A stretch of 64,000 nt of DNA from Promethearchaeota archaeon (GCA_016839745.1 JAEOTS010000009.1:9507-73506); one strand, 5' to 3'. Shown: positions 2,428-62,715, counted from the stretch's first letter. Notes: a model not told the origin generated them from the sequence alone. Program-made: numbers and translations.

Positions 2428-2450
2428 GACATCCAGTTTCTTTACATATC

Positions 2451-22240: not shown

Positions 22241-22522
22241 GAAAAAAGAATTAAATCCTTTATAACGTTAATTATCACGAGATAGAATTATAAATATGGG
22301 CTGCGTAAGGATTGGATACCCTTTATGCCGTTTCGATGAAGAGTTGGCGTAATGAAATCTATATTACTTAGATTAATGATAATACCGATCTGCTCTGATT
22401 TATTTATAATTTTATCTCTCTTATTAAAAAGATAAGTATAATTTTTAAATGAAAGAAAATCTTCTTAAAACCTAAGAACTTTTTATTTTATCATCACAGA
22501 AATTATAATTAAAGTTTTATCT

Positions 22523-23248: not shown

Positions 23249-23270
23249 ATTTATTTAAAGATATAAAAAG

Positions 23271-24092: not shown

Positions 24093-24118
24093 CTCAATTC
24101 CTCAATCATACTAGTGAT

Positions 24119-33539: not shown

Positions 33540-34133
33540 TTATTCGACCAGCGATATCATTTCTGATTTGTATATTTTCTTCAGTATAAGCTCTAATAAT
33601 TCTTCAAAGGATTCTACGATCCCTTCACCGTATATCGCAGCAGTATTTTTAGTTTTTAAGTTGTGGTACTTAAAGCTATTAATGTTTTCTAGAAATTCAG
33701 AGGTATTAAATTTATCGTCCAAATCTTGCTTGTTGAATGCAAGAATTTTAGGGATTTTTTCAAAATCTTCTTCGAAATAATTGCATAACTCATTCCACGA
33801 GGTTAAGTTCCTATAATAGGCAGAATTTTGTGAATCAGCAACGAAAATAATTCCATCTATTGCTCGTAAAGTTATAGGTCTAGTTATAATGTAAAAGTCT
33901 TGCCCAGTTGTGGAATAAAGGTGGAGTTTAAGGAGCCATTGTTTATTTTCAAAAACAATCGTACCATAATCGAAAAATAGAGTTCTTCGTACGCTACTGT
34001 CTATGCTTAACACCCTATCTTCCTTTCCAAAATGTTTAAATAAGGATTTCAAGGTAGTGGTTTTTCCCGAAAGTGCAGGACCAAAATAACAGATTTTTAA
34101 TTGAATTGTTTGACTTAAATGGTCTATTATCAT
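33540..34133 (-). CDS. mglA: MglA-like small Ras-superfamily GTPase
   Basis: 197 aa. It aligns block by block with Myxococcus MglA as I remember it: KICYFGPALSGKTTTL (P-loop), RRTLFFDY, LYSTTGQDFY (G3 with Gln), IDGIIFVADSQ, NKQD (G4). Confidence 0.85.
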   Translation of the reverse strand: MIIDHLSQTIQLKICYFGPALSGKTTTLKSLFKHFGKEDRVLSIDSSVRRTLFFDYGTIVFENKQWLLKLHLYSTTGQDFYIITRPITLRAIDGIIFVADSQNSAYYRNLTSWNELCNYFEEDFEKIPKILAFNKQDLDDKFNTSEFLENINSFKYHNLKTKNTAAIYGEGIVESFEELLELILKKIYKSEMISLVE

Positions 34134-41421: not shown

Positions 41422-42351
41422 TTAGTTTCCGATAATATCCTTTAACTTGGGAAAGATTCGGGGATAATGCACCGCCATGCAATGGATCCCTGCTAGGAGG
41501 TTTTTACTTCGTAATTCTGATATGAATGGTTTGAAGAAATCATAATTATATTGATCGTATAATTTTTTCTGCTCCTTTTTATCAGTGACTTCTTTTTTAA
41601 CGTTTTTCCACTTAGCTAAGATTTCTTTAGGGACGCTAACGCCAGGTACAAAAGTATCGAAACCTTTAGCAATTCCATATGACTTCATTGGAAATATTCC
41701 AAGTAATATCGGCACTTTATACTTCTTGATTTCTGTTAAAAACTCTATAGTACGATCGAGGTCGTAAACAACTTGAGTTTGGATAAATTCACAACCCGCT
41801 TCTGCTTTTCTACCTATTTTTAATATTTCTGCGCCCATTGGTTCAGCATTAGGATTTGCAGCCGCCCCAACATGTAAAGTTGGAGGTGCTTCGATCTCGT
41901 TACCGTTAATAGAACCTTTATCAACCATTTCCCTCACTAACTTTACCAGCGTTGCGGAATCAAGATCAAAAACAGGTTTTGACTCGGGCATATCGCCTAA
42001 AGCTGTGTGATCGCCTGTTAGAGAAAGAACATTGCGTATCCCTAGAGCGTGCGCGCCCATTATCATTCCCGCAATTCCTAACTTATTAACATCCCTTACA
42101 GTCATTTGCCAAACGCATTCTAAACCGGCAGCTTTTTGAATTAAATGCGTTGCAGCCATAGAATTTATTGTTACAATGCCTAAGGGACTATCTGTCACAT
42201 TTGCAGCAATAACATAGGGGGCCATTTCTTTAGCTTCATGGATAGTGTGAGAGAGATCCGTTGTTTTTTCAGGCTCAAGTTCACCTGTTAATATAAATTC
42301 ACCCTTCGCGATGGCCTCTCCTAATTTGGAATAAGTTTTTACTTCTGTCAT
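41422..42351 (-). CDS. metF: methylenetetrahydrofolate reductase, MetF (copy 1)
   Basis: Collinear with the second MetF at 51266..52204 (FILTGELEPEK, ANVTDSP, LSLTGDH, VGAAANPN, FIQTQ). I prefer the ATG at 42349..42351, which has GGAGGT about 10 nt upstream, over the track TTG at 42369. Confidence 0.85.
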   Translation of the reverse strand: MTEVKTYSKLGEAIAKGEFILTGELEPEKTTDLSHTIHEAKEMAPYVIAANVTDSPLGIVTINSMAATHLIQKAAGLECVWQMTVRDVNKLGIAGMIMGAHALGIRNVLSLTGDHTALGDMPESKPVFDLDSATLVKLVREMVDKGSINGNEIEAPPTLHVGAAANPNAEPMGAEILKIGRKAEAGCEFIQTQVVYDLDRTIEFLTEIKKYKVPILLGIFPMKSYGIAKGFDTFVPGVSVPKEILAKWKNVKKEVTDKKEQKKLYDQYNYDFFKPFISELRSKNLLAGIHCMAVHYPRIFPKLKDIIGN

Positions 42352-42359
42352 TTTCACAT

Positions 42360-43031
42360 TTACCTCCAAACTATCTCTCTTTGATGACCGATCTTACTCC
42401 AATCCAATGGGTCTCTTAATTTTGAAAATAAGTCTAAACGGCCTAACTCTTTTAGGCGATTATATATCGTTATCCAACCGCAGTCTTTCTCATAATCACC
42501 CACTTCACATTTTCCATCCACCATACCTCCACAAGGTCCATTCATAAGCGCTTTAGCGCAAGTTGTGACTGGACAAATACCTCCAGTTTCGTTTAACAAA
42601 CAATCGCCACACCCTTTGCAACGCATATAGAAACGTCCGATGCGTTCTGTCATTCCTATAAACTCAGTGTTATTAGCCGTGAAAACGGGTATTTCTGGAT
42701 GAGATTTCGTAAGAACTTCAATAATCGATTGTACCCCTAAACCACAGGCTAATGTTAAAATACCGTCTGAGTTTTTAACATCCTCATCAATCTTGCGTAA
42801 ATCTTTTTTCATCACACGGTTATCACAAACATCCTCGCTCACTATTGCATTAGTAACATTAAATCCCCTTTCTTTTAGTTTTTCCGACCATTCCTCAGCT
42901 CCTTCACTCCCCCCAGTTTGACAGAGAGCTGCGCAAACCCCACAGCTCACGACTAATATATTTTTTACTTTATAATTGTTAAGAGCTTCAAAAACCTCTT
43001 CTTCCGGTTTTTTCGTTGTTATTACAACCAT
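42360..43031 (-). CDS. metV: MetV, zinc/Fe-S-type partner subunit of MetF (methylene-THF reductase C-terminal-domain protein)
   Basis: The Cys-rich block CKGCGDCLLNETGGICPVTTCAKALMNGPCGGMVDGKCEV is characteristic of acetogen MetV. Confidence 0.85.
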   Translation of the reverse strand: MVVITTKKPEEEVFEALNNYKVKNILVVSCGVCAALCQTGGSEGAEEWSEKLKERGFNVTNAIVSEDVCDNRVMKKDLRKIDEDVKNSDGILTLACGLGVQSIIEVLTKSHPEIPVFTANNTEFIGMTERIGRFYMRCKGCGDCLLNETGGICPVTTCAKALMNGPCGGMVDGKCEVGDYEKDCGWITIYNRLKELGRLDLFSKLRDPLDWSKIGHQREIVWR

Positions 43032-46532: not shown

Positions 46533-47651
46533 ATGTCGGAAATAGAGTATTATGAGATTGTAAGACAAAAATTAACTCTAGGGCCTTTATACGCGCCAAA
46601 ACATAAGAAAATCTTTGAGCTGATGAAACTCTTGTGGAATGAAGAGGAAATTGAAATACTTTCCAAATTTGAAGGCGCTGATAAATATAATTCGTTAAAA
46701 GAGTTAGTAAAATCAACTGGGATCTCAAAAGATAAACTGGTACCCATTTTAGATCGGTTATATAATAAAGGCACAATTGCTAAAGTCGAGAGCGGGTACG
46801 GGCTAGTTCCGATTCTACCAGGCATATTTGAAAGATATTTTATTAGAAGGAACGATTCTAAAGTAAATTTAAAAAGAGTAGCTGAAATATATAGGTGGTT
46901 TTTTAAGAATTTTTTACCCCCATTCTTAGTGGAAACAAATTTAAAATTTTTTAGACCGCGATTACCCGTTGACGCTAAAGAAAAATTAATACAAATAGAC
47001 GAGTCTCTTGATGTTGAGACTCAAATTCTTCCGTATGAATTAATAACTCAATTAATTGATAACTACGATGTCTTTACCGTTATTTCCTGTCAATGTCGTT
47101 TAATTGCAGAATATGGAGGAGACCCATGTAAAGTAGCACCCGCAGAAATGGGATGTTTTTTAGCAGGTGAAGGTGCTCGATCTTCCATTGAACGTGGGGC
47201 TCCAAAACTTAATAAAAAAGAAGCAATAGAATATTTAAAAAAAACAGAAAAAGCGGGATTAATTCATAATTGTGTAGCTGATAGCAGTATTGAATCTACT
47301 TTAGCCATATGTAATTGTTGTAGTTGTCATTGTGGGGCACTTGTAGCAGCAAAAGAGCATAAATACTATGCCACTTTGGCATCTAATTACACACCCAAAA
47401 TAAACGACGATCTTTGCACTAAATGCGAAATCTGCCTTAATAAGTGCCCAATGGGCGTAATTTATCATAAACTTCCTAATGAATCAGATTCTTCTGATGA
47501 ACATATGTTTATAAATGAAGATTTTTGCTTGGGGTGTGGAGTTTGTGCAACTAATTGCCCCAATGATGCTATAAAGCTAGTAAAAGTTAGAGATAATGTT
47601 CCCACAGAACAGTACAAATTCGGGACGAAAACATTTTTGGAATTGATATAA
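46533..47651 (+). CDS. Fe-S protein: N-terminal winged-helix-like region, Cys-rich middle, C-terminal 2x[4Fe-4S] ferredoxin domain
   Basis: 372 aa. Motifs CTKCEICLNKCP and CLGCGVCATNCP, additional CQCR..C and CNCCSCHC clusters, and a wHTH-like N-terminal stretch LKELVKSTGISKDKLVPILDRLYNKGTI. Confidence 0.6.
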   Translation: MSEIEYYEIVRQKLTLGPLYAPKHKKIFELMKLLWNEEEIEILSKFEGADKYNSLKELVKSTGISKDKLVPILDRLYNKGTIAKVESGYGLVPILPGIFERYFIRRNDSKVNLKRVAEIYRWFFKNFLPPFLVETNLKFFRPRLPVDAKEKLIQIDESLDVETQILPYELITQLIDNYDVFTVISCQCRLIAEYGGDPCKVAPAEMGCFLAGEGARSSIERGAPKLNKKEAIEYLKKTEKAGLIHNCVADSSIESTLAICNCCSCHCGALVAAKEHKYYATLASNYTPKINDDLCTKCEICLNKCPMGVIYHKLPNESDSSDEHMFINEDFCLGCGVCATNCPNDAIKLVKVRDNVPTEQYKFGTKTFLELI

Positions 47652-50726: not shown

Positions 50727-51188
50727 CTACATAGGAACTTTCTCATTTTGAGATACGGTCTTAATAGGTTTTAAAACTACGCAAACTCGTTCCACTCCTT
50801 TAACATCGCTTCTACCTCTAAAACTTTCTATAACTGCATCGAGTTCATTTATTTCTGGAACATTTACCTTAACAAGAATGCCACATTCTCCCGCTAAGAA
50901 ATATACTTCTTCACACTGGGGAAGTATTTGGGCTTCTCGCAATAATTCCTTTAATTCGGATTGACTTCTCGGGATCAATGTGATAAATGCTATTATACAG
51001 TGTTCGTCCTCTCTACATACCTTAATCGTGAACTTTTCTATTACGTTTTCGTCTTGAAGTTTAATAACTCTTTTTCTCACGGTGGATTCACTCATTCCTA
51101 TTTCCTCTCCTATTTCTCGATATGGTCTTCGTGAATCCTCGATTAACATTTCTAGAATTTGTTTATCTTTCTCATCTAAATTTTTCAT
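50727..51188 (-). CDS. Lrp/AsnC-family transcriptional regulator
   Basis: HTH LDEKDKQILEMLIEDSRRPYREIGEEIGMSESTVRKRVIKL plus a C-terminal RAM-like domain. The ATG at 51186..51188 is preferred over the track TTG at 51218. Confidence 0.85.
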   Translation of the reverse strand: MKNLDEKDKQILEMLIEDSRRPYREIGEEIGMSESTVRKRVIKLQDENVIEKFTIKVCREDEHCIIAFITLIPRSQSELKELLREAQILPQCEEVYFLAGECGILVKVNVPEINELDAVIESFRGRSDVKGVERVCVVLKPIKTVSQNEKVPM

Positions 51189-51265
51189 ATTTCTATCACA
51201 CTCTTCCAATTTGTTCAAATACAGTAAAAAAATTATTAAAATTAAATTTTATATTACACTATTAA

Positions 51266-52204
51266 CTAAAAATTCTTTAATAATGGCTCAAAAAGCCTTT
51301 CGTAGTGAACGGCCATGCAATGAATGCCCGCAGCCTTAGTAGTTTTCTGGATTTCTCTTATAAACGGTTCAAAAAAATCAATATTAATTTTATCGATAGC
51401 TTGATTCCGTTTTTTCTTATCTTCTTTGAATTCCTTTTTTACACTTTTTAAAGCGCTCAAAAGATCCTTTGGAACTGAAACACCAGGGATGTACTCGTTA
51501 AAATACCAAGCAATTCCATAATTTTTTATAGGAAATAATCCCAGCAAAACAGGAACATTGAATCTTTCTAATTCTTTTAAAAATTCCTTGGCATCATCTA
51601 TATCAAAAGATGTTTGAGTTTGAATGAAATCAGCACCAACTTCTACTTTTCTTCCTACTTTAAGGATTTCAGGTTCTCTGGGGTTTGAATTTGGATTAGC
51701 GGCGCATCCCACATTCATTTCGATTTTCCCACCTTCAATTTCGTTTCCCTCTAAGTCAGTACCATCATCTACCATTTTAGAAACGAGATCGATTAATTGT
51801 GTAGAGTCTAAATCATATACTGCTCTTGCATTTTTATTATCTCCTAACGCTGAATGATCTCCTGTCAAAGCTAAAAGGTTTCTCAATCCAAGAATCGAAC
51901 CTCCTAAAATATCACCAAATAAAGCAATCCTATTCCTATCTCTAACGGTTATCTGCCAGATGGCTTCTAGCCCTACTTTTTCTTGAACTAAATGGCATGG
52001 TACCAAAGAGCAAGTGTAAGCGTCTCCTTGTGGTCCATCAGTTACATTAGCCGCAGTAATCTTTCCCGTTTTCTTCATTTCTTCTGCGGAATGCAGAATG
52101 GAGGATAAATCAACCATCTTTTTCGGCTCCAATTCACCAGTGAATAAAAATTTGCCTTCTTTCATTGTTTTTACTAAATTACTATATGCTGGTCTTTTTG
52201 CCAT
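51266..52204 (-). CDS. metF: methylenetetrahydrofolate reductase, MetF (copy 2)
   Basis: 312 aa, collinear with copy 1 (FLFTGELEPKK, ANVTDGP, LALTGDH, VGCAANPN, FIQTQ). GGAGGAG lies upstream of the ATG. Confidence 0.85.
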   Translation of the reverse strand: MAKRPAYSNLVKTMKEGKFLFTGELEPKKMVDLSSILHSAEEMKKTGKITAANVTDGPQGDAYTCSLVPCHLVQEKVGLEAIWQITVRDRNRIALFGDILGGSILGLRNLLALTGDHSALGDNKNARAVYDLDSTQLIDLVSKMVDDGTDLEGNEIEGGKIEMNVGCAANPNSNPREPEILKVGRKVEVGADFIQTQTSFDIDDAKEFLKELERFNVPVLLGLFPIKNYGIAWYFNEYIPGVSVPKDLLSALKSVKKEFKEDKKKRNQAIDKINIDFFEPFIREIQKTTKAAGIHCMAVHYERLFEPLLKNF

Positions 52205-52207
52205 TTT

Positions 52208-52906
52208 TTAATTCTCCTCCTTTTGTGGTTCAGTTTCTTCGTTTGTGAACGTTTTATTTATCTCTATGAATCTGGGGCTACTCCATAGCTGATAATTTCT
52301 TGGCGGACGATACTTATTAAAGAGATCAAGCCTATTGAATTTCCTAAGACGTTCATAAATCTTTATCCAGGCACACTCATGTATATATCCACCAACTTCG
52401 CATTTACCATTAACTGTACCTCCACACGGTCCATTACTCAAGTTTTTAGCACAACCTGCCATAGGACATACTCCACCAGTAACCCCTAGTAAACACTCTC
52501 CACAAGTTTCACAGTATTCAGCAAAATTATTTTCAGCGTTATTTTCTGCTCCTCCAAACATACTATTTTGGGCTGGATAAGTAATAATGTTTTCGAATAT
52601 TCTATTCATCATAACAACTCCCAAACCGCAGGATAGAGATACAATTGCATCATAATGCTCAACAAACGGTCGAACAGTTGTTGCTGCGATTCTATCGTCA
52701 CATTGTCTGAGTACAGTTATAGCTTTCCATGTTAATTCCTTCCCCTCGCTCCTTGCTTTTAATTCTAGCATCTGTGCTAATACTTTTGCCTCGTTGATAG
52801 AGCGAGGAGGTTGACAGCAGCCGTCACATCCAGCTACTAAAATCTTCGAATACGGTTTTATCATCTCGTAAATTTCTTCAATATTTTTCTGTTGCGTGAT
52901 TATCAT
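52208..52906 (-). CDS. metV: MetV partner subunit (copy 2)
   Basis: CETCGECLLGVTGGVCPMAGCAKNLSNGPCGGTVNGKCEV. The gene ends 3 nt before metF copy 2. Confidence 0.85.
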   Translation of the reverse strand: MIITQQKNIEEIYEMIKPYSKILVAGCDGCCQPPRSINEAKVLAQMLELKARSEGKELTWKAITVLRQCDDRIAATTVRPFVEHYDAIVSLSCGLGVVMMNRIFENIITYPAQNSMFGGAENNAENNFAEYCETCGECLLGVTGGVCPMAGCAKNLSNGPCGGTVNGKCEVGGYIHECAWIKIYERLRKFNRLDLFNKYRPPRNYQLWSSPRFIEINKTFTNEETEPQKEEN

Positions 52907-52937
52907 ATTATTTAACTCCTTTTTTTATCATAAATAT

Positions 52938-55900
52938 TTATTCTGATATTTTAATTGATTTACTTTTATTTTCTAATTCAATTGATCCTAATTTTTTTAT
53001 TCTTTCGACGAATTCTATCATCGTATCAGAGAATATTTTACCTTCGCTGGCAGAAATCCATTTACGCAAAAATCTATCAGGATTAATCCCTATGGATTCG
53101 AGTTCTGATTCAATTTCATTTGTTCTTCTCAAAGTATCTTGATTTCCAGCAATGTAATGACAATCTCCGATATGACATCCTCCTACGAAAACTCCATCTG
53201 CACCCTCTAAAAATGCTTGTAATATGAGGCTCTTAGATAATCCTCCAGAACACATCACTCTTATCGTTCTAACATTAGGCGGGTATTGGTATCGACTTAC
53301 TCCAGCTAAATCTGCGCCGGCATAACTGCACCAATTGCATAAGAATGCTATGATTCTTGGACGTCCGTTTCCGAATTCAACGCGTGCTGCTTCAGCTATC
53401 ATTGGTTCAATCTGAGAGGTTCCAAAATGGCTCATTGTAATTGCTTCAGCAGGGCACTCAGCGGCGCAGTCCCCACATCCCTTACACAACAAGGGGTTTA
53501 CTTCGGAGATCATTTTACCTTCTTCATATTTTACTCCAACGGCTCCGTAGTTACAAACTTCAGCACATCGATTACAACCTATGCATAGTGCTGGATTAAC
53601 TTTTGAAATTACACCTTCTGTTACTAGGATATCCTTAGATAAAATTGTAGTCGCTCTCGAAGCTGCTGATAATGCTTGAGCGATACTTTCGCTGATCGTA
53701 GCAGTTCCACGGGCTGTACCACATAAGAATATACCATCAGTTGCGAAATCTGAAGGTCTTAGTTTCACATGCGCCTCCAAAAAAAAGTTGTCACTATTTG
53801 TAGGTACTTTTAGCATTTTCGCTAATTTTTCATTTTCTTCTCCATCAGAAACAATACCGGCGCTTAATGCTATTAAATCGGAATTAATAGACAAATTGCC
53901 TAATTTTGGTGTTTCTATTTTTACACTTAATTTTCCGCTATCTTGAACGATTTCTGGGGGTTTTTCATGATTAAATCGAATGAAAACAATTCCTTTTTCC
54001 CTTGCTAAGTTGTAATACTTTTCCTTAAATCCATAAGTTCTTATATCCCTGTAAATAACTACAATATTTAATTTTGGATTAACTTCTTTTGCTTTTATTG
54101 CGTTTTTAATAGCTTCAGCACAACACATTCTGCTACAATAGGGGTGTTCTTCGTTTCTAGAACCAACGCACTGTATCATTACTAATGTGTTTACTCCCTC
54201 GATTTTTTCAGGATTCGTATAAAGAATATTTTCTAATTCAGATTGCAAAATTACTTTATCATTTTTCCCAAAAAGAAATTCTCCTTCTTTTGGTTGATAT
54301 TCGTGAGCACCGGTAGCTACGATTATGATTCCATGCTGAAATTCCGTTGTTTCTTTATCATTACCAAAAGTAATATTTGTCGTGAAATTACAGACATATC
54401 CACCAATTGAATTGATTTTACCATTAAGAAAAACATTAATGAGTTTATGTTCATTAACTTTTTTGATTAAATCCGAAATATGTTCTTGAACATCGTAATT
54501 TTCAATTGTTTGATGTATATTTTTAGAAAAACCACCAAGTTCATTGCTTTTTTCAATGAGAAACACTTCAAATCCTTGATTTGCTAAGTTAAGCGCTGCC
54601 GTCATTCCTGCTACACCCCCGCCAATCACCATTCCTTTATGTATTACGGGTACTTCTTGTTCTTGTAATGGTATTAAATTACGAGCTTTTGCGATTGCCA
54701 TCCTAACCAAGTCTTTAGCTTTTTCTGTGGCTTCTTTTGGCTCATGCATGTGTACCCATGAGCATTGATCTCGAATATTAGCCAAATCAAAAAGATATTT
54801 GTTCAACCCGGCTTCCCTAATTGTTGCTTGAAATAATGGTTCGTGCGTTCTAGGTGTGCATGAAGCAACTATCACTCGATTTAAGTTAAACTCTTTAATT
54901 TTTTCTTTAATATTTGTTTGGGTATCAGCTGAACAAGTATATAGGTTTCTTTCAGCATAACTTACATCTGGTAATTTACTTGCATAGTCAACAACGTCAG
55001 CAACATCAACAACACCTGCAATATTAATTCCACAATGACACACAAAAACTCCAATTCGGGGAGGTTCCCCAATAGTATCAATTTCTCTCGGGAGTTTTTT
55101 TTCAGTAATTAAGGTATTTCTAGCTTCAGACAATAAAATATTAACAGCTCCAGCTGCTGCACTTGCTTCAACCACAGTTTCTGGAATATCTTTTGGCTCT
55201 GAAAACATCCCACAAACATAAATTCCTTCTCGAGAGGTTTCTACAGGAGAAAATGGTTTAGTCTTACAGAACAATTCTTCGTTCAAATCAATCTTTAATT
55301 TTATCGCTAACTCTTGAGTACTAAGATTTGGCATCGCCCCTACTGCTAAAACTACTAAATTAAAAATGTCTTCAATTATCTTCCCATCTTCAGACTCATA
55401 ACTAAGGATTAAATCGTTCGATTCTGAAACCTCTTTCACGGCTGAAATTCTACTTCGGATATATTTTACTCCGTATTCTTCTTGAGCACGATCAATATAC
55501 TTATCAAAATCTTTTCCACATGCTCTAATATCCATTGAAAAAATGGTAGGTTGAACAATTGGCATATGTTCCTTAGCAATTACTGCTTCTTTAGCAGTAT
55601 ACATGCAACAAACAGATGAACAATATTCGCCACCATGTTTTTTATCTCTTGAACCTACACATTGCAAGAATGCAATTTTTTTAGGGATTATCCCATCTGA
55701 TGGCCTAAGAATAAGACCCGAATGCGGACCACTTGCACTCAATATACGCTCGAATTGAATACTCGTGACAACATTGGGATATTTTCCAAAACCATAATGC
55801 TGTGTAGATGCTGGATCATATTCATCAAATCCAGGTGCTAGAATTACAGCCCCTACATTAAGTGTAGTCTTTTTATCTTTAAGGGTATAATCGATGGCTT

Positions 55901-56399
55901 TAGCTTTACATACACCCTTACAAAATCCACACCCTATACATATATCTTGATTAATAGAAAACACTAAAGGAACAGCTTGAGGGAATTTAACGGATATCGC
56001 CGCTCTTTTTGAGAGACCTTCATTAAAGAAGTCAATTGCTTCTACTGGGCATTCTTGAGCACATACACCGCAACCAGTACATGTTTCTTGATCTAAAAAC
56101 AACGATTGTTGCTTTAGCTCAACTTTGAAATTACCTGGCTTTCCCGTAATTTTTTCGAGAGTAGTATTAATTAAAAGGTTGATATTTTCATGGCGTCCTG
56201 CGGCAACCAATTTTGGCGCGAGGATACAAATGGCACAATCATTAGTTGGAAAGGTTTTATCTAGCTGGGACATCACACCTCCAATACTCATTGTTGATTC
56301 TGCTAAATATACTTTATAACCAGAGTCACCCAAATCCATTGAAGCTTGTATACCTGCTATTCCGCCTCCAATAACTAAAACCGAGCCCACTTTTTCCAT
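52938..56399 (-). CDS. fused HdrA-like / HdrA / MvhD polyprotein (heterodisulfide-reductase subunit A-type flavoprotein with a C-terminal MvhD domain)
   Basis: 1153 aa. FAD motif VLVIGGGIAG with LDKTFPTNDCAICILAPK and an inserted ferredoxin. Then the HdrA N-domain IGVFVCHCGINIAG, a second FAD motif MVIGGGVAGMTAA, CVGSRN..YCSRMCC and a C-terminal 2x[4Fe-4S]. Then the MvhD block FLCNWCSYAGADLAGVSR..VMCSG. Confidence 0.85.
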   Translation of the reverse strand: MEKVGSVLVIGGGIAGIQASMDLGDSGYKVYLAESTMSIGGVMSQLDKTFPTNDCAICILAPKLVAAGRHENINLLINTTLEKITGKPGNFKVELKQQSLFLDQETCTGCGVCAQECPVEAIDFFNEGLSKRAAISVKFPQAVPLVFSINQDICIGCGFCKGVCKAKAIDYTLKDKKTTLNVGAVILAPGFDEYDPASTQHYGFGKYPNVVTSIQFERILSASGPHSGLILRPSDGIIPKKIAFLQCVGSRDKKHGGEYCSSVCCMYTAKEAVIAKEHMPIVQPTIFSMDIRACGKDFDKYIDRAQEEYGVKYIRSRISAVKEVSESNDLILSYESEDGKIIEDIFNLVVLAVGAMPNLSTQELAIKLKIDLNEELFCKTKPFSPVETSREGIYVCGMFSEPKDIPETVVEASAAAGAVNILLSEARNTLITEKKLPREIDTIGEPPRIGVFVCHCGINIAGVVDVADVVDYASKLPDVSYAERNLYTCSADTQTNIKEKIKEFNLNRVIVASCTPRTHEPLFQATIREAGLNKYLFDLANIRDQCSWVHMHEPKEATEKAKDLVRMAIAKARNLIPLQEQEVPVIHKGMVIGGGVAGMTAALNLANQGFEVFLIEKSNELGGFSKNIHQTIENYDVQEHISDLIKKVNEHKLINVFLNGKINSIGGYVCNFTTNITFGNDKETTEFQHGIIIVATGAHEYQPKEGEFLFGKNDKVILQSELENILYTNPEKIEGVNTLVMIQCVGSRNEEHPYCSRMCCAEAIKNAIKAKEVNPKLNIVVIYRDIRTYGFKEKYYNLAREKGIVFIRFNHEKPPEIVQDSGKLSVKIETPKLGNLSINSDLIALSAGIVSDGEENEKLAKMLKVPTNSDNFFLEAHVKLRPSDFATDGIFLCGTARGTATISESIAQALSAASRATTILSKDILVTEGVISKVNPALCIGCNRCAEVCNYGAVGVKYEEGKMISEVNPLLCKGCGDCAAECPAEAITMSHFGTSQIEPMIAEAARVEFGNGRPRIIAFLCNWCSYAGADLAGVSRYQYPPNVRTIRVMCSGGLSKSLILQAFLEGADGVFVGGCHIGDCHYIAGNQDTLRRTNEIESELESIGINPDRFLRKWISASEGKIFSDTMIEFVERIKKLGSIELENKSKSIKISE

Positions 56400-56401
56400 T
56401 T

Positions 56402-57172
56402 TTATCCCCCCAAAATTGATATAAATGTTGGAATTTCTTCATTTATTTCAGAAACATCGACTAAACCTCTTGCCCTTAGAACAACTATGTGCTCTAACAC
56501 CTCGCTCGCTTTAATACCAATCTCATTTGCTATAGTAGGGACAGATTTACCTTTCTCTTTTATTTTTATTATGATTTTATGACGAATAAATTCATTTCTA
56601 ACGACCTCGTCAATTAAATTTTCAAATTTCTCAACTGTAATTTGTTCGCCGTATACATTTTCTTCAGTTACTAATTCCCTTTGTCTTGCTATTAACCCTC
56701 TCAATCTAGAATCCTCTAATACATTTTTAACAGCTTGTAACGAATCTGTTATTTGTGCTTCTTTTTGTTTTTCTTTCATTGGAGATGGTCCTAATTTTTG
56801 TATATGATTAGTAAATTCCGATACAATTTGAGCGAATTTATTTCCTTCTGCCGCAGAAACCCAATCAAGACGCATTCGATTAGAAAAATTAACTAAACCT
56901 AATAATTTGCTTAAAGCTTTCATTTTAATTTCAGCTTCATAATTGCCAGTTAGGTAATGACAGTCTCCTAAATGACACCCTAAAACAATTACTCCATCAA
57001 TTCCATGGATGAAAGCATCTGCGACGAACGATGGATCTACTCTGCCAGAGCACATTACTCGAATGACTCTAATATTGGTCGGGTATTGAATGCGGCTAAC
57101 GCCCGCAAGATCTGCACCTGCATAGGAACACCAGTTGCATAAAAATCCTAAAATTTTTGGTTCAAATTTCAT
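56402..57172 (-). CDS. mvhD: MvhD-like protein (methyl-viologen-reducing hydrogenase delta-subunit domain) with a C-terminal winged-helix extension
   Basis: FLCNWCSYAGADLAGVSRIQYPTNIRVIRVMCSGRVD and GCHLGDCHY. Residues ~195-250 (SVPTIANEIGIKASEVLEHIVVLRARGLVDV) look like a wHTH. Its ATG directly abuts the hdrA stop. Confidence 0.85.
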   Translation of the reverse strand: MKFEPKILGFLCNWCSYAGADLAGVSRIQYPTNIRVIRVMCSGRVDPSFVADAFIHGIDGVIVLGCHLGDCHYLTGNYEAEIKMKALSKLLGLVNFSNRMRLDWVSAAEGNKFAQIVSEFTNHIQKLGPSPMKEKQKEAQITDSLQAVKNVLEDSRLRGLIARQRELVTEENVYGEQITVEKFENLIDEVVRNEFIRHKIIIKIKEKGKSVPTIANEIGIKASEVLEHIVVLRARGLVDVSEINEEIPTFISILGG

Positions 57173-58840
57173 TTAAACACCTCCTCCGTAAGCAAAAATT
57201 TCTGCTCGTATTTGATCCCCCGTAAAGTGATGGATAATTATTGCTTTTTTAGGACAACTTGCTCCACACAGTCCACATCCTTTGCAAACTACTTTATTAA
57301 CAATTGCAGTGTCTGTAATTTCATCTTTTGTAATAGCTTTATAGGGACAAATTTTTATGCAGGCTTCACATCCAATACATAATTCCTCTATAACTTCTGC
57401 GGTTGATCCTTCTACTTCTAAAGTATCTTTCCATAAAATTCTAGAAGCCCGCGAAGCCGCTGCATTAGCTTGACTAGTACTTTCGGCTATATCGGCGGGC
57501 CAATGCGCAGATCCGCACATAAAAATACCATCAGTTGCAAAATCTACGGGTCTTAGTTTCACATGAGCCTCTAAGAAGAAATTATTTTCTTCTAATGGAA
57601 CTTTAAGCATTTTCGCTAACTTATCTGAATCCTCATTTGCGATAAGCGGAGTAGATAAGACTACAAGATCCTGTGGTATTTCAATTTCTTGGTTTAGTGA
57701 GTCACTATATACCTTTACTACACCTTTCTTAATAATTGGAGGTTTTTCTGGTAAGTATTTAATGAATAAGATACTCATCTCTCTGGCTTTTCGATAATAT
57801 TTCTCATAAACCGTTCCAGATGCTTGAATATCTTGGAATAATATGGTTATATGAGCATTGGGATTTTTTTCCTTAATTAGCATGGCGTTTTTCATTGCAG
57901 TCATGCAACAAATATTGGAACAATATTTTCTTACTTCATTTCGACAACCAACACACAATATCATTGTAATGTTATTAGAACTAATTTGATCAGCCTTCAA
58001 TAATTTCTCCAAGTCCAATTGGCTAATTATGTTTTTTTTATTATATCCATACAAGCCATCTGGTGTTAAAGGAATTGCGCCAGTTGCTATAATAATTACC
58101 CCCGCGTCTATTTCGATGGTTTTATCGTTTTGTTTAACAGAAATTTTATAATTTCCAATGAAACCATCAACTTTTTCGATTACTGAGGATTTGTAAACTT
58201 TAATTTTTTCATGAGATTCGATTAAATCTAAAGTCTCTAATAACTTTGAAGCATCCTCATTACTGGGATATACTTTATTAAGGGATCTAAGGAGTCCCCC
58301 TAACTCTTTTTCTTTTTCAATTAACGAGACTTCAAATCCTTGATTGCCCAGGTTTAGAGCTGCGGTCATTCCTGCTATTCCACCACCTATTACAATAGCT
58401 GAAGGAGTGATCGACACTTTTATTCTTTCTAATGGTTCCAATAAAGCTGCTTTGTGAACGCTCATCCTAATAAGGTCCTTAGCTTTAATCGTTCCTTTTT
58501 CTGGCTCCTTCATATGAACCCAAGAGTCCTGGTCTCTAATATTTACCATTTCGAATAAGTAAGGATTTAGACCAGCTTCTTGGCATATGGCTCTAAATAA
58601 GGGTTCATGAGTTCTCGGAGAACAAGAAGCTACGATAACGCGATTTAACTCGTGTTCTTTTATATTTTCTTTAATTTCAGTCAATCCTACTTCGGAACAA
58701 GTATAAAGGTTATCCGCTGAATAGGTTACATTTGGTAATGTTTTAGCATATTCCGCTAAAGACGGAACATCTAATACACCGCCAATATTAGTCCCGCAAT
58801 GACATACAAATACCCCAATTCTAATATCTTCGTCTGTCAT
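57173..58840 (-). CDS. hdrA: heterodisulfide reductase subunit A-type flavoprotein
   Basis: 555 aa. N-domain IGVFVCHCGTNIGGVLDV, FAD motif IVIGGGIAGMTAA, CVGCRN..YCSNICC, FFLEAHVKLRPVDFATDGIF, and C-terminal CIGCEACIKICP / CKGCGLCGASCP. Confidence 0.9.
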   Translation of the reverse strand: MTDEDIRIGVFVCHCGTNIGGVLDVPSLAEYAKTLPNVTYSADNLYTCSEVGLTEIKENIKEHELNRVIVASCSPRTHEPLFRAICQEAGLNPYLFEMVNIRDQDSWVHMKEPEKGTIKAKDLIRMSVHKAALLEPLERIKVSITPSAIVIGGGIAGMTAALNLGNQGFEVSLIEKEKELGGLLRSLNKVYPSNEDASKLLETLDLIESHEKIKVYKSSVIEKVDGFIGNYKISVKQNDKTIEIDAGVIIIATGAIPLTPDGLYGYNKKNIISQLDLEKLLKADQISSNNITMILCVGCRNEVRKYCSNICCMTAMKNAMLIKEKNPNAHITILFQDIQASGTVYEKYYRKAREMSILFIKYLPEKPPIIKKGVVKVYSDSLNQEIEIPQDLVVLSTPLIANEDSDKLAKMLKVPLEENNFFLEAHVKLRPVDFATDGIFMCGSAHWPADIAESTSQANAAASRASRILWKDTLEVEGSTAEVIEELCIGCEACIKICPYKAITKDEITDTAIVNKVVCKGCGLCGASCPKKAIIIHHFTGDQIRAEIFAYGGGV

Positions 58841-58844
58841 TTTT

Positions 58845-60140
58845 TTATACCCTCATTACTGTCTCAGCTGCTTTAGCTGCTGCTCCACTTGCGTCTATTA
58901 CTGAATTTGGGATGTCCATTGGTTCTCTACAAGCCCCACAAAGGAAGATTCCTTCTTTGGTTGATTTTTGGGGATAGTAGGTCATCCCTTTGAAAAAATT
59001 AAATTCATCAAGCTTAATTCCTAAAATTTCTGACAATTTCACTGCGTCTTTATTTGGAATCATACTCGTTGCTAAAATAACTAAGTCAAATTGAAGTTCT
59101 TTCACTTCAAACGTGTTTATATCTTCATAAACAACAATAGGATTTTTTTGTTCGTCTTGTAAAATTTTTGCAACCTTTCCTTTAACATATTCAATTGCGT
59201 AATCTTCCGAACCTCTCTGAATATACTTTCGAAATCCTTTTCCACCGGCTCTTAGATCAATGTAAAATATCGATGTTTGAATTTCATTATCGTGTTCATA
59301 AGCGATCATAGCTTCTTTAGTTGTATACATACAACAACAAGAGGAGCAATAGGGATTATTTTTTAAGTCTCTTGAACCTACGCAATTAATAAACGCGAGT
59401 TTTTTTGGTTCTTTTTTATCGAAAGGCCTAATTAAATGCCCATCTAAAGGCCCAGAAGCGCAAATCAATCGTTCAAACTCTAACGAAGTTACAACATTAG
59501 GAAATCGTTCATACCCTAAGGAGATAATAGATTTAGGATTAAACACATCGTATCCTATAGCAGCTATGATCGATGCCACGTTTATTTCAATTTCCTTATC
59601 TTCCTGATCGAAATCTATTGCTTCTCTCTCACATGCTTTTTCACATAATCTACAAGCGGATTTCGTAAACCATAAGCATTTTTCTTTATCAATTGACATG
59701 ATGGCGGGAACTCCTTGAACATAATCAATAAAGATCGCTCTCCGCTTTCTTAATTGCATATCGAAATCGTCATCTACTCTCATAGGACATTTTTCAACAC
59801 ATAACCCACAATTAATACAAGCATCTTCTTTCACATACCGTGCATGGGTTAATACTTTAACCGTGAAATTACCAGCAGTCCCCTCAACTTTTTGGACTTC
59901 TGATAGTGTGCGAAGCGTAATATTTGGATGTCGAGAACATTCTGCAAGTTTTGGTGCTAAAATGCATATAGAACAATCGTTCGTAGGGAATGTTTTATCA
60001 AGCTGGGCCATTCTTCCTCCAATACACGCGTTTTTCTCTATTAAATCAACCTTTATACCTCTTTCAGCTAAATCTAATGAAGCTTGAATCCCAGCTATAC
60101 CTGCTCCAATAACCATAACGCTTTTTAACCTTCCGTCCAA
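58845..60140 (-). CDS. HdrA-like FAD/Fe-S oxidoreductase (FAD domain with inserted ferredoxin; lacks the HdrA N-domain and C-terminal ferredoxin)
   Basis: 431 aa with a TTG start and GGTGA 7 nt upstream. VMVIGAGIAGIQASLDL, LDKTFPTNDCSICILAPK, CINCGLCVEKCP, CVGSRD..YCSSCCCMY. Confidence 0.8.
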   Translation of the reverse strand: MDGRLKSVMVIGAGIAGIQASLDLAERGIKVDLIEKNACIGGRMAQLDKTFPTNDCSICILAPKLAECSRHPNITLRTLSEVQKVEGTAGNFTVKVLTHARYVKEDACINCGLCVEKCPMRVDDDFDMQLRKRRAIFIDYVQGVPAIMSIDKEKCLWFTKSACRLCEKACEREAIDFDQEDKEIEINVASIIAAIGYDVFNPKSIISLGYERFPNVVTSLEFERLICASGPLDGHLIRPFDKKEPKKLAFINCVGSRDLKNNPYCSSCCCMYTTKEAMIAYEHDNEIQTSIFYIDLRAGGKGFRKYIQRGSEDYAIEYVKGKVAKILQDEQKNPIVVYEDINTFEVKELQFDLVILATSMIPNKDAVKLSEILGIKLDEFNFFKGMTYYPQKSTKEGIFLCGACREPMDIPNSVIDASGAAAKAAETVMRV

Positions 60141-60573
60141 ATCTGTTCACCGTATATTATTTAAGGTTTTGTTATACGACTCGAAACTAAATTGCTACCG
60201 AGGATTTATTGAAAATTTCATTTTTAAGAAAAATTTTTTCTTATTAATTTAATTACTCTTAACATTTTCTAATGAATCGTTCAATAATATTATTAGAACC
60301 GATGATTCTATATAAAATTTTTATTAAAAAAAGTAAAAAAGTGTGGAATTATTGTGATAATCAATAAAAAAATGCGGAAAAAATCAATTTCCTCAAAAAA
60401 AATATAACTAATCAAGAAGAAATGTTATTTTTTTGTTTGATTTAATTTATTTAGAAGAATAATCTTATAATAGATGACGGTATTTTTATTAATAGTATTA
60501 AGATGTTTTAATTACAGAATGGACTACTATAAAACAAATTATTAGTGCAAAAGATAAATAAGAGTTAAGAATA

Positions 60574-61683
60574 ATGACTGAAAACGAAGTTAAACCTAAA
60601 TCCTTTGTAGATCTTATCAAAGAGGTTCACGAAAAAGGTATTTGTGGAGAATGTGGTGGATGTGTTAGTTTTTGTTCTGCTGCTGAAATAGGAGCCATTG
60701 ATATCTCTACAACGGGGTTACCCTATTATTCAAATGAAGAAAATTGCCTTCATTGTGGCATTTGCTATTTAATCTGCCCCGAAATTCACGAATTAGACGA
60801 AGAATTAAATGAGAGATTTAATTTTAAGCCCCCAATAGGTAATTGGTCTAAAATAGTAACAGCTCAAGCCAGTGATCCTCAGATACAAAAGTTTGCTACA
60901 GATGGTGGAGTGGTTACCGCAATATTGATTGCCTTATTAGAAAATAACTTAATTGATGCAGCGATTGTAGCAAAAAAAATAGGTCCCTTTCAAAGAACAC
61001 CTTTCTTTGCTAAAAATAAGCAAGATATCATAGACGCGATAGGAACAAACTATAACATAGAAGGTCCTGTTTCAGAGTTAGGAAAATACAACACTTTCGT
61101 TCCAACGATTACAGAATTAAAAAAAGTAGTTAGTTCTGATAAAATGAAAATAGCGGTTGTCGGAGTTCCATGCCAAATTCATTCCATAAGAAAAATGCAA
61201 GAGTTAAAAATAATTCCTGCTCATGTAGTCGAATACACATTGGGGCTATTTTGTTACGAGAATTTTAAATTTGACGACGCTGCTAGGGCGAGAATAGAAG
61301 AAAGATTTAATTTCTCTTTTAATGATATTGAAAAGATGAATATTAAGGAGAACTTAATTATAAATCTTAAAAACAAAGATGAACCACTGATAATAGAATT
61401 TTCAGATCTACAAGATATTATGAGACATGCGTGTAGAGTATGTGAAAATTTTACGAATTACTTCGCAGATATTTCTTTTGGGGGAATTGCATCGCAACAA
61501 GGATTAACCACCACTTTAATTCGTACTAAAGCTGGAGAGAAGATATACAAACTTGCTTTAAACAAAGGATATATTAACGAACCCAGCGATTCCAATACCT
61601 CTATCGAAAAATCGAAAATGATAGCTCAAATTATAAGCTTTAGTAAAAGAAAAGCTAATAGAGCAGAAGAATTTCAACCTTAA
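60574..61683 (+). CDS. FrhB/FdhB-family protein (coenzyme F420 hydrogenase/dehydrogenase beta-subunit-like) with an N-terminal ferredoxin domain
   Basis: 369 aa. CGECGGCVSFC and CLHCGICYLICP, DGGVVTAILIALLE, VGVPCQIHSIRK, CRVCENFTNYFADISFGG. Confidence 0.85.
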   Translation: MTENEVKPKSFVDLIKEVHEKGICGECGGCVSFCSAAEIGAIDISTTGLPYYSNEENCLHCGICYLICPEIHELDEELNERFNFKPPIGNWSKIVTAQASDPQIQKFATDGGVVTAILIALLENNLIDAAIVAKKIGPFQRTPFFAKNKQDIIDAIGTNYNIEGPVSELGKYNTFVPTITELKKVVSSDKMKIAVVGVPCQIHSIRKMQELKIIPAHVVEYTLGLFCYENFKFDDAARARIEERFNFSFNDIEKMNIKENLIINLKNKDEPLIIEFSDLQDIMRHACRVCENFTNYFADISFGGIASQQGLTTTLIRTKAGEKIYKLALNKGYINEPSDSNTSIEKSKMIAQIISFSKRKANRAEEFQP

Positions 61684-62034
61684 AATGAAATTTATTGTTT
61701 AGTTTTAAGTTTCTCTTTTTATTGGGAATCCATTTGGTGAAAATCCTTATAATACTCTGAATGACCTATAATGTTAAGATATAAACATATTTAAATGCTT
61801 AATTTTATTACTTAAATGACATTTATATACAATTTTGGGATATTGTAGACTTCATTTATTACGATAGAGAGAACAATGTGATTTTACGCAGAAGATAAGA
61901 GTCATATTATCCATATATTAATCCCAATTAAAAACTCATTTAAGTTAATGATCAAATAATAAACATCTATTGTAATAAGAGTCCGACGAAAGCTTTACTG
62001 GGAACAATTGGATTCAAAAAACGAGCAGTTCATC

Positions 62035-62715
62035 ATGAAAATAACAGTTTCGGGCCCAACACAGAGCGGTAAGTCAAGTTTCATTAAGTACTTTGACGAA
62101 AAAGCTTTGAATGTAGAGGCAAAAGCCAGAGACAACAAGTATTATACAGTTGGAATGGATTTAGGTAGCGTTAAATTAAATGGGTTTGATGTCTTCTTAT
62201 TTGGAACTCCTGGTTTATTAAGATTTAATGTTATGAGAGATGTTGTCGTGCGAGGAGCTGATGGTCTAATTTTTATATTTGATGCGGCTCACCCAGAAAA
62301 AGACGAAGATGCAATTATAATTTTAAATTCTCTTAGAAAGGTTCTAAGTCCCGATATACCAATAGTATATTTAGCAAATAAACAAGATGTTGCAGGAGCA
62401 CGACATGCCGAAGTAGTGAGGTCCCAGAATTATCTTCGTGAAGATTCAGTGATTTTTCCAACTAACACCAGAACAGGAGAAAACTTAGAAGAGGCGTTGA
62501 AATTTCTTGTGAATCGAATATACGATCATTATTCTTCGCTCCTCACAGTGCTCCGTTCATACGAAACAAACATAGAAGGTTTGCAAGAAAAGCTGAATAA
62601 GAATCCCGTTGAAATGAGAGATTTGTTAAATAACCTTGAAATAAAGAGATTTATTGAAGTTGACAGGATAAATAAAACCTATAAGGTAAAACATGGGTTA
62701 AAACTCTTAATATAA
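62035..62715 (+). CDS. small GTPase (MglA/CvnD-related, COG2229-like) with a C-terminal winged-helix-like extension
   Basis: P-loop GPTQSGKSS, G3 FGTPGLLRF, G4 NKQD. About 60 extra C-terminal residues (VEMRDLLNNLEIKRFIEVDRINKTYKV). The ATG at 62035 is preferred; the track ORF starts at an in-frame TTG at 62008. Confidence 0.75.
   Translation: MKITVSGPTQSGKSSFIKYFDEKALNVEAKARDNKYYTVGMDLGSVKLNGFDVFLFGTPGLLRFNVMRDVVVRGADGLIFIFDAAHPEKDEDAIIILNSLRKVLSPDIPIVYLANKQDVAGARHAEVVRSQNYLREDSVIFPTNTRTGENLEEALKFLVNRIYDHYSSLLTVLRSYETNIEGLQEKLNKNPVEMRDLLNNLEIKRFIEVDRINKTYKVKHGLKLLI

Follow-up and report, generated by a model that had tools for sequence, protein, structure and literature searches.

Must a methylene-tetrahydrofolate (methylene-H4F) reductase that is tied to heterodisulfide reductase (Hdr) subunits have HdrB and HdrC encoded beside it? 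The question is raised by a 64,000-nt stretch of DNA from a Promethearchaeota archaeon (GCA_016839745.1 JAEOTS010000009.1:9507-73506), referred to here as the window, in which metV and metF follow genes for HdrA and MvhD on the minus strand and no gene for HdrB or HdrC is found. An earlier interpretation, called here the sequence-only reading, had taken this operon for a candidate novel HdrBC-less architecture. The locus is better described as a cluster of the Hdr-type MetVF reductase minus hdrBC, not as a new enzyme class; its parts, the heterodimer principle of its HdrA, and the link between MetVF and Hdr are known. Its novelty is weakened because the heterodimer has been published, because the hdrBC-less state appears to reflect a recent loss, and because hdrBC is found elsewhere in related genomes. 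The balance of the evidence tips, though not far, toward an Hdr-type MetVF reductase from which hdrC and hdrB have been deleted, with MetVF in the position of HdrCB, ferredoxin as the low-potential partner, and an FrhB-type protein as the entry point for F420H2.

A scan of open reading frames (ORFs) returned the six genes with the coordinates, lengths, and spacers that had been claimed, and Pfam supplied the domain calls. Two codes are used for the HdrA modules: fic denotes a core of flavin adenine dinucleotide (FAD) and thioredoxin reductase (TrxR) type with an inserted 2x[4Fe-4S] ferredoxin domain, and Nfct denotes an N-terminal cluster domain, the FAD/TrxR core, and a C-terminal 2x[4Fe-4S] ferredoxin. 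In transcription order, with g1 to g4 as labels for the four HdrA/MvhD genes, the minus-strand operon encodes a short HdrA-type module of 431 aa with a TTG start (g1, 58845..60140), a long HdrA-type module of 555 aa (g2, 57173..58840), a "long" MvhD of 256 aa (g3, 56402..57172; PF02662, E = 2.4e-51), a fic-Nfct-MvhD fusion of 1153 aa with the FlpD/MvhD domain at its C terminus (g4, 52938..56399; E = 3e-49), MetV (232 aa, 52208..52906; PF12225, E = 4.7e-30), and MetF (312 aa, 51266..52204; PF02219, E = 6e-31). Spacers of 4, 0, 2, 31, and 3 nt separate them. A Shine-Dalgarno (SD)-like GGTGA lies 8 nt 5' of the TTG of g1 and a GGAG 9 nt 5' of the ATG of metV; the junctions within the operon have SD-like sites and no oligo-T, the 31-nt g4|metV spacer included, and a run of seven T residues follows the metF stop codon, at 51232. 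From this arrangement we infer that the six genes are co-transcribed. Upstream of g1, an AT-rich intergenic region of 433 nt (60141..60573), the presumed promoter region of both units, leads to a divergent plus-strand gene (60574..61683) for an FrhB-type, F420-reductase-like module of 369 aa.

The local absence of HdrB and HdrC, part of the sequence-only reading, was confirmed in several ways. No stop-to-stop ORF of at least 60 aa in the 64-kb window contains a CCG tripeptide, and phmmer with a Lokiarchaeal HdrD-like query finds nothing in the window at E <= 10. A CCG profile taken through three iterations on 80 related loci has no match in the window, and tblastn with HdrB of a sister lineage reveals no remnant in the FrhB|g1 intergenic region or in the window as a whole. 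Pfam scans of the other large ORFs in the window detect no [NiFe] hydrogenase and no Hdr subunit.

The 80 loci come from a scan of one genome per species in GTDB and were annotated locally with domain seeds and the iterated CCG profile; annotations were spot-checked by Pfam and NCBIfam, and the tallies given below cover 82 loci. The window layout (PEPCK, Ras, and FrhB on the opposite strand, then fic-Nfct-MvhD-ficNfctMvhD-MetV-MetF-AsnC, without hdrCB) recurs in the independent samples L084 (93% identity), L086 (94%), and L005 (86%), and its downstream part is seen in L085. Repetition across independent assemblies, at 86-94% identity, shows that the layout did not arise as an assembly artefact. 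In L006-L008, at 82-83% identity, genes for an HdrC-like protein (168-172 aa) and an HdrB-like protein (289 aa) stand directly 5' of the first HdrA gene. In the HdrC-like protein there are two CxxCxxCxxxC motifs, and TIGR03290 is its best NCBIfam match; the HdrB-like protein has two CCG domains and is best matched by TIGR03288, at 305 bits. These loci thus hold a complete Moorella-type hdrC-hdrB-hdrA...mvhD-metV-metF operon, and the synteny comparison across Asgard genomes that the sequence-only reading had proposed yields both forms. In the sister lineages hdrC-hdrB sits between an intergenic region of the FrhB|g1 type and g1. The corresponding region of the window aligns by blastn over its full length only with the hdrCB-less L005; against the hdrCB-bearing L007 and L008 only the flanking coding ends align, so that the end-points of a deletion are not mappable.

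More distant relatives extend the series. In four Asgard loci at 47-48% identity (L059, L066, L068, L071) the order is ficNfctMvhD-hdrC-hdrB-metV-metF-asnC. L002 (75%) has only an MvhD fragment and ficNfctMvhD-metV-metF-asnC, without hdrCB, and L003 (69%) has an HdrD-like gene with the four-gene cassette and no adjacent metVF. Upstream of the cassette in L003 (1-6067) lie genes for an HdrA-MvhD fusion, mvhG, mvhA, a histidine kinase, and the HdrD-like protein, an arrangement which indicates that Lokiarchaeia can have the cassette linked to a hydrogenase of the group 3c type. A commoner Asgard cluster is paralogous, hdrC-hdrB-frhB-fic-Nfct-MvhD-ficNfct-MvhD, with products 54-61% identical to g1-g4; in Bathyarchaeia, Thermoplasmata, and Methanomassiliicoccales the cassette is flanked by hdrCB and mvhGA. 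Among bacteria, three Desulfobulbaceae loci (L076, L079, L081) show ficNfct-MvhD-metV-metF with no CCG gene within flanks of up to 10 kb on each side, a Desulfobacteraceae locus (L044) is linked to metVF with an HdrD-like gene upstream, and in the hdrCB-less Caldatribacteriota locus L074 metVF follows the cassette at a distance of about 3 kb. In L076 and L079 (13028-13600) MvhD appears as two short ORFs of about 85-102 aa each before metV, a split that a frameshift, or an in-frame stop such as selenocysteine, may account for. Overall, a CCG gene is present at 65 of the 82 loci, MvhAG at 22, and FrhB at 26. MetVF occurs at 16, nine of them with a CCG gene and seven without, one of the seven being truncated. 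The gene metV begins 14-89 nt after HdrA, MvhD, or HdrB genes in Loki clade A, Loki clade B (~47% identity), Desulfobacteraceae, and Desulfobulbaceae; linkage of MetVF to Hdr is also described in the literature for Moorella, Sporomusa, Chloroflexi, and Ca. Syntrophoarchaeum.

A rough neighbor-joining tree of the fused HdrA, calculated from BLOSUM62 distances, rooted at the midpoint, and lacking support values, puts the hdrCB-less window, L084, L086, L001, and L005 in a clade whose sister is the hdrCB-bearing group L006-L008; the next branches are L002 and L003, and all outgroups carry hdrCB or hdrD. A clade nested in this way, with hdrC-hdrB in its sister operons, argues against the novelty that had been claimed for the architecture. 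Read most simply, the tree has hdrCB lost in the clade of the window and, independently, in L002, which would make at least two losses within the metVF-linked Lokiarchaeal clade; hdrCB appears to have been lost similarly in the bacterial Desulfobulbaceae and Caldatribacteriota. Between the window and L005, both hdrCB-less, dN/dS is 0.03-0.09 for all six genes, 0.082 for the FrhB-like gene, and 0.064 for the Lrp/AsnC regulator, values that are approximate since dS, at about 0.7-1.4, is near saturation. Judged by these ratios, the hdrCB-less operon, which has become fixed in its clade, is functional and has been kept under strong purifying selection after the loss.

The HdrA set that remains has an unusual but recognizable construction. 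HdrA-type FAD/Fe-S modules are found by Pfam in g1, g2, and g4, and, as had been claimed, there are four such flavin modules and two MvhD modules. By BLASTP, g4 is a head-to-tail fusion of paralogues of g1, g2, and g3, matched by its residues 3-417 (44% identity), 445-1001 (49%), and 1014-1153 (48%), respectively; the operon thus holds two copies of one three-part unit, one split and one fused. The four modules were aligned to HdrA of M. thermolithotrophicus (5odc_A), and every cysteine of the reference was tabulated. The product of g1, which lacks the N-terminal and C-terminal domains, aligns to residues 144-563 (E = 1e-121), and that of g2 to residues 2-239 and 307-643, skipping 240-306. Cys194 and Cys197 are kept in g1 and the first half of g4, together with all eight cysteines of the inserted ferredoxin domain. 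In g2 and the second half of g4 these two cysteines and the entire inserted ferredoxin are gone, and Cys 11, 13, 46, and 71 of the N-terminal domain and all eight cysteines of the C-terminal ferredoxin are kept. All four modules retain the GxGxxG FAD motif, the ligands of the TrxR-domain cluster HA4 (Cys386, 399, 403, 404), and the E356/K409 pair that is taken as a signature of the bifurcating flavin.

No single module has all four canonical HdrA domains. Each short/long pair has one trans-ligated N-terminal cluster, one inserted ferredoxin, one C-terminal ferredoxin/MvhD arm, two FAD sites, and two HA4 [4Fe-4S] clusters. The suggestion that unlike HdrA modules pair in place of a homodimer is supported by the Fe-S ligands of the short and long modules, which are exactly complementary; the concept itself was already in print. 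As judged from its ligands, heterodimer-type ("type II") HdrA occurs twice in the cluster and forms its basis, g1+g2+g3 being the split copy and g4 the fused one. Complementary tandem or fused HdrA has been described in anaerobic methanotrophic (ANME) archaea and noted for the Moorella HdrA (Chadwick 2022, PMC9012536), the Moorella and Sporomusa proteins have been described in the same heterodimer terms (Kremp 2022, PMC9430772), and according to a 2025 survey the two-TrxR, type II HdrA is without any biochemical study (PMC12054007). In NCBIfam no single module reaches an equivalog cutoff, and g4 passes the HdrA2 cutoff only through the summing of three matched stretches. An AlphaFold2 model of g4 (pTM 0.83), in which the low-confidence stretches include several Fe-S-ligand loops, has as its best structural matches the HdrA chains 5odh_A, 8rvu_A, and 7bkb_A of Mvh-Hdr, Elp-Hdr, and Fdh-Hdr. 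The two modules of g4 may pair as a pseudo-dimer like (HdrA)2.

Neither g1, g2, nor g4 has a PF14691/GltD match in Pfam, and because this NAD(P)H-binding insert is missing from HdrA, NADH is unlikely to be a direct donor. HdrA proteins of 1618-1651 aa in Hod-, Thor-, Hermod-, and Promethearchaeota (L016, L017, L020, L050; P0044-P0058) combine fic-Nfct-MvhD with a GltD/NfnB-type insert (PF14691), which makes each of them an NAD(P)H-binding HdrA of the Moorella type with MvhD fused to it; in all four loci examined they adjoin an HdrD-like gene of about 400 aa. The MvhD modules come in two sizes. In g3 the FlpD domain (residues 7-128) is followed by a conserved C-terminal extension of about 120 aa (residues ~135-256) with weak winged-helix similarity (HTH_20, E = 0.0018). 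Across the surveyed loci a long MvhD of about 250-270 aa follows a split Nfct-type HdrA in 37 cases, and a short one of ~145 aa follows, or is fused to, a fused HdrA in 44.

MetV has the NGPCGG motif of the Fe-S/zinc-ribbon subunit, and its 13 cysteines are all invariant among 19 homologues. Residues E24, D116, and Q195 of MetF align to the catalytic motifs of the Thermus thermophilus methylenetetrahydrofolate reductase (MTHFR). A sequence search of the PDB with MetV returned no homologue, and one with MetF returned weak matches, to classical MTHFRs only. The nearest MetF clusters at 50% identity are from Lokiarchaeota and Bathyarchaeota/Hecatellales. A second pair, metV2-metF2 (223 + 315 aa), lies at 41422-43031 on the minus strand with no Hdr genes nearby; metF2 is 50% and metV2 38% identical to its counterpart in the operon, and the pair is also present in L005 and L007. 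On its 3' side, in the same orientation, are genes for a 3-hydroxyacyl-CoA dehydrogenase (40044-41234) and an Lpd-like flavoprotein disulfide reductase (38409-39935). The latter resembles lpdA, which stands alongside metVF in the Wood-Ljungdahl pathway gene cluster of Clostridium ljungdahlii.

By Pfam, the divergent FrhB-like protein has a 2x[4Fe-4S] ferredoxin domain at its N terminus and after it the FrhB N and C domains. In the PDB it is matched best by 8rja_E (3e-44, residues 11-346) and 8riu_B (9e-36), with FdhB or ElpB at 2e-11 or weaker. The two leading matches are FwdI and the zeta subunit of acetyl-CoA decarbonylase/synthase (ACDS) of Ca. Ethanoperedens thermophilum, F420-reductase modules shown experimentally to wire Fe-S chains to F420, and the window protein has the same build, a ferredoxin domain plus FrhB N/C in about 360-370 aa. 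Divergent placement of this gene is conserved in the window, L084, L086, L005, L007, and L008. In Elp-Hdr, F420H2 is oxidised by an FdhB/FrhB-type subunit, and an MvhD homologue carries the electrons on to HdrA. All F420 biosynthesis genes have been reported in Lokiarchaeota, and Lokiarchaeal transcripts of hdrABC and frhB have been seen without those of mvhADG. The earlier proposal of this gene as a partner was a reasonable one, given its conserved divergent position and architecture: the FrhB-like protein is most likely the candidate F420 donor or acceptor module of the MvhD arm, with F420 binding and docking as predictions.

A possible mechanism follows from mapping the modules onto the Mvh-, Fdh-, and Elp-Hdr structures. 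In those complexes the arm reduces the FAD' of the partner; the high-potential electron passes from HA4' through HdrC to HdrB, and the low-potential electron passes through the shuttle cluster of the arm to HA5', in the inserted ferredoxin of the partner, and on to ferredoxin. In the window, the mobile arm would be formed by the domains at the N and C termini of g2 (with g3), or of the second half of g4 with its MvhD domain, and the FAD of the partner module, g1 or the first half of g4, would receive electrons from it in pairs. That partner would also provide HA4' and HA5'/HA6' along with the bifurcating FAD', so that each short/long pair would hold one complete bifurcation unit. From the shuttle cluster the low-potential electron would reach free ferredoxin by way of the inserted ferredoxin domain, and its high-potential counterpart would go from HA4 to MetV, in place of HdrC, then to the MetF flavin and to methylene-H4F, or the reverse, since docking of MetV at the HdrC site would make methylene-H4F the high-potential acceptor. 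Placement of MetV at that site is suggested by S. ovata pull-downs in which MetV binds HdrA and MetF but not HdrB, a contact between HdrA and MetF being seen as well (PMC9430772), and by the clusters of L002 and Desulfobulbaceae, which are reduced to fused HdrA, MvhD, and MetVF. The third redox couple, F420H2/F420, would enter through the divergent FrhB-type module, for a net reaction of 2 F420H2 + Fd(ox) + CH2=H4F -> 2 F420 + Fd(red) + CH3-H4F, where Fd is ferredoxin, in the direction of bifurcation or confurcation. The CH2=/CH3-H4F couple has an E0' of -200 mV (Kremp 2022, PMC9430772). On this scheme hdrCB would not be needed in cis in the lineage of the window.

Several points weigh against the scheme of a deleted Hdr-type MetVF reductase. 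The case for co-transcription stops at spacing, SD-like sites, and the lack of T-runs; the tree behind the inferred losses is a rough one; and the contact between MetV and HA4, though the most likely one, is a prediction from the mapping. In C. ljungdahlii MetVF by itself is competent with ferredoxin and does not bifurcate, and S. ovata MetVF purifies without tightly bound Hdr (PMC9430772). The FrhB-like gene, a candidate by virtue of its conserved divergent synteny, is absent from L002 and L006, and F420 binding by its product is a prediction. The pterin carrier could be either H4F or tetrahydromethanopterin (H4MPT). Retention of HdrCB or HdrD beside the cassette at 65 of the 82 loci may mean that HdrCB matters mechanistically and is supplied in trans. 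Finally, the scheme leaves unexplained a role for the second FAD/HA4 of each pair, the reason why two paralogous pairs are always kept together, and the contribution of HdrCB in the sister lineages.

A stronger claim is that the operon encodes a previously undescribed, self-sufficient, flavin-based bifurcating enzyme with three terminals: with F420H2 as donor it would reduce ferredoxin and methylene-H4F, or run in the confurcating reverse, and MetVF would have replaced HdrBC as the high-potential branch on a heterodimeric type II HdrA. This can be put forward only tentatively, and on present evidence it is somewhat doubtful. If it were true, Lokiarchaeia would have an energy-coupling step at the level of the methylene reductase, and HdrBC would be an optional fourth terminal of the Moorella-type complex.

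It is also possible, though we consider it unlikely, that the products form a canonical HdrABC-MvhD-MetVF complex that is only apparently HdrBC-less, with HdrB and HdrC supplied in trans by the paralogous hdrC-hdrB-frhB-hdrA cluster. The sequence-only reading had proposed a search for hdrBC elsewhere in the genome, and related genomes bear on this. The metagenome-assembled genome (MAG) ABR04 carries both a complete hdrCB-less metVF operon (L005) and the paralogous cluster (L039), and in DZG_bin1.240 an operon copy that ends at a contig end (L004) shares its contig with such a cluster (L030), so hdrBC is indeed present in relatives. However, it lies there inside a paralogous operon that has a complete HdrA/MvhD set to itself, at only 54-61% identity to g1-g4, and sharing would need cross-reactivity. 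The paralogous HdrB is 56% identical to the operon HdrB of the sister lineage, hdrABC and metFV-mvhD are often found apart (Poudel 2018), and a CCG gene does adjoin the cassette at most of the surveyed loci. Against supply in trans stand the repeated loss of hdrCB in the metVF-linked Lokiarchaeal clade, its absence in Desulfobulbaceae, and a constraint that is not relaxed after the loss.

Quite unlikely, in our estimate, is a third possibility, that MetVF and the cassette work apart, the cassette and the FrhB-like protein as an F420:ferredoxin-type oxidoreductase and MetVF as a plain ferredoxin-dependent "2S" reductase. The behavior of the C. ljungdahlii and S. ovata enzymes described above would fit this, as would the second metVF pair of the window and the 66 of 82 loci at which the cassette occurs without MetVF; an F420:ferredoxin-type role has been proposed for FrhB-HdrA-MvhD in Korarchaeia. 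A separation of functions is harder to reconcile with the close placement of metV 3' of HdrA, MvhD, or HdrB genes in several unrelated lineages, with a g4|metV spacer that has an SD-like site and no T-run, with the L002 cluster, where fused HdrA-MvhD and MetVF are all that is left, or with the contacts of HdrA to MetV and MetF in the S. ovata pull-downs.

The complex might instead be a methylene-H4MPT reductase that stands in for Mer in the archaeal Wood-Ljungdahl pathway, a role of the ANME-1 MetF type, but this is very unlikely. The CH2=/CH3-H4MPT couple lies at about -320 mV and would offer almost no driving force from F420H2, whereas the -200 mV of the H4F couple suffices. Moreover, mer expression has been reported in Lokiarchaea, so that no replacement of Mer is needed, and cultured Lokiarchaeia carry fhs, folD, and metF. 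Asgard MetF groups with that of ANME-1, Bathyarchaeota, and Verstraetearchaeota in a clade that may use H4MPT (PMC9012536), the nearest MetF clusters noted above are in keeping with this, and the window contains a CdhD-like gene; positive evidence for the H4MPT alternative left open by the sequence-only reading was not found in the analysis. That the operon is a decaying, non-functional remnant, as the loss of two subunits kept by sister lineages might suggest, is so improbable that it can be set aside, since at least four independent assemblies have all six ORFs intact; pseudogenization was rejected on the low dN/dS and on cofactor ligands that are all intact.

G+C content of the window is ~33%, and the nearest homologues are from Lokiarchaeota/Promethearchaeota MAGs at up to 95% identity. 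An exact look-up of the 1153-aa g4 returned no record; the proteins closest to it are P0001 (95%), P0002 (94%, in L086), and that of the nearest named MAG (89%). Pfam assigns the neighboring genes to the divergent FrhB-like protein, a Ras-like small GTPase, PEPCK, an Lrp/AsnC regulator, and a metallo-beta-lactamase-fold protein. The gene for the Lrp/AsnC-family regulator (50727..51218, minus strand; PF13404, 2.9e-15; PF01037) begins 47 nt downstream of the end of metF and is found 3' of metF in every Lokiarchaeal metVF locus examined. A TATA-like sequence lies with the T7 run between metF and its start, and the gene probably has its own promoter; its product may be the regulator of the operon.

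Two Ras/Arf-like small GTPases, typical Asgard signature proteins, are encoded at 62008-62715 (plus strand), syntenic with PEPCK in relatives, and at 33540-34133 (minus strand). A CdhD-like gene for the delta subunit of CO dehydrogenase/acetyl-CoA synthase (PF03599) lies at 17929-19077 (minus strand), with no other cdh among its annotated neighbors. Fe-S proteins are encoded at 27903-28991 (minus strand) and 46533-47651 (plus strand): one of the two is a polyferredoxin-like protein of 362 aa, and the other, of 372 aa, carries a 2x[4Fe-4S] domain at its C terminus and at its N terminus weakly matches a family of Sulfolobus plasmid regulatory proteins. The regions 1123-3964, 19945-25018, 30465-32780, and 36441-38321 jointly hold two divergent acyl-CoA-dehydrogenase-like genes, a lysine/diaminopimelate block (dapF, lysA-like, dapB, dapA), a CDC48-type AAA ATPase, and an Eco57I-like restriction-modification methylase.

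Since 2014 the Hdr-type methylene-H4F reductase has resisted explanation: the complexes of Moorella and Sporomusa could not be isolated intact, and the second electron partner and the role of HdrBC are unsettled. Here a single archaeal class with cultured members offers a natural series, from hdrC-hdrB-[HdrA x4, MvhD x2]-metVF, through the same operon minus hdrCB, to a minimal fused HdrA-MvhD-metVF. This amounts to a natural hdrBC knock-out, which asks whether MetVF can be coupled to ferredoxin without HdrBC and what donor supplies the MvhD arm. The answer bears on the Asgard balance of F420, ferredoxin, and C1 units, and hence on models of syntrophic metabolism.

Comparison with known systems places the locus more exactly. 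The canonical methanogen HdrABC-MvhAGD complex has a homodimeric HdrA, HdrB, HdrC, and the MvhAG hydrogenase, none of which is found in the window. The Elp-Hdr of M. marburgensis, the Fdh-Hdr-Fmd of M. hungatei, and the HdrA2B2C2 of M. acetivorans are similar to it in that an FrhB/FdhB-type flavoprotein and an MvhD-type [2Fe-2S] connector feed the HdrA FAD, with ferredoxin as the low-potential acceptor. They differ in having a homodimeric four-domain HdrA and a high-potential branch of HdrBC and heterodisulfide, where the window has a heterodimer-type HdrA and a presumed MetVF branch; the FrhB-like protein, moreover, is much closer to FwdI and ACDS zeta than to FdhB or ElpB. In ANME HdrA3-6, 12, and 13, losses of the N-terminal domain and of Cys197 are complementary between two modules, as here, and the residues of flavin-based electron bifurcation are kept in both TrxR modules. 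The ANME HdrA3/4 fusions place the module with the N-terminal domain first, however, whereas g4 and the Moorella protein begin with the Cys197 module; g4 ends in a fused MvhD, unlike the ANME fusions, and the cassette is linked to MetVF, unlike the ANME-1 clusters (Chadwick 2022).

The paralogous Asgard cluster shares with the window the four-gene HdrA/MvhD cassette, the long/short MvhD pattern, and often a nearby Lrp/AsnC regulator, but it has hdrCB, an frhB within the operon, no metVF, and an MvhD unfused from the second HdrA. The C. ljungdahlii "2S" enzyme has the same heterodimeric core of MetF and MetV (NGPCGG, Cys clusters) but no Hdr/MvhD partners and no bifurcation, and the second pair of the window fits this type better than the operon pair does. 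The bacterial MTHFR classes (E. coli-type, 2S, 3S, 6S, and "X") include none with HdrA and MvhD minus HdrBC. In the open-access literature no explicit Asgard metVF-hdrA-mvhD operon was found, papers on Atabeyarchaeia, Korarchaeia, Desulfobulbus rimicarensis, and D. autotrophicum mentioning MTHFR or Hdr separately and without linkage. The sole archaeal mention found is a single sentence on Ca. Syntrophoarchaeum, which is not among the 80 loci, reporting a cluster of MetFV, HdrA, and MvhD in which HdrBC goes unmentioned (PMC9012536).

The closest counterparts are the "6S" or type IV clusters of Moorella thermoacetica and Sporomusa ovata. These have hdrB and hdrC, both present in L006-L008, L059, L066, L068, and L071 and neither in the window operon, and the Moorella HdrA has an NADH-binding GltD insert that the window HdrA lacks and that among Asgard proteins is present only in 1648-aa HdrA paralogues. 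The window differs further in its doubled HdrA/MvhD set (split and fused), its divergent FrhB-type gene, and its archaeal host. Common to both is a MetV and MetF core beside MvhD and an HdrA with two TrxR modules; in the window metV and metF are adjacent and intact, MvhD is present twice in the cluster (as g3 and as the C terminus of g4), and association of MetVF with HdrA and MvhD is predicted from this synteny.

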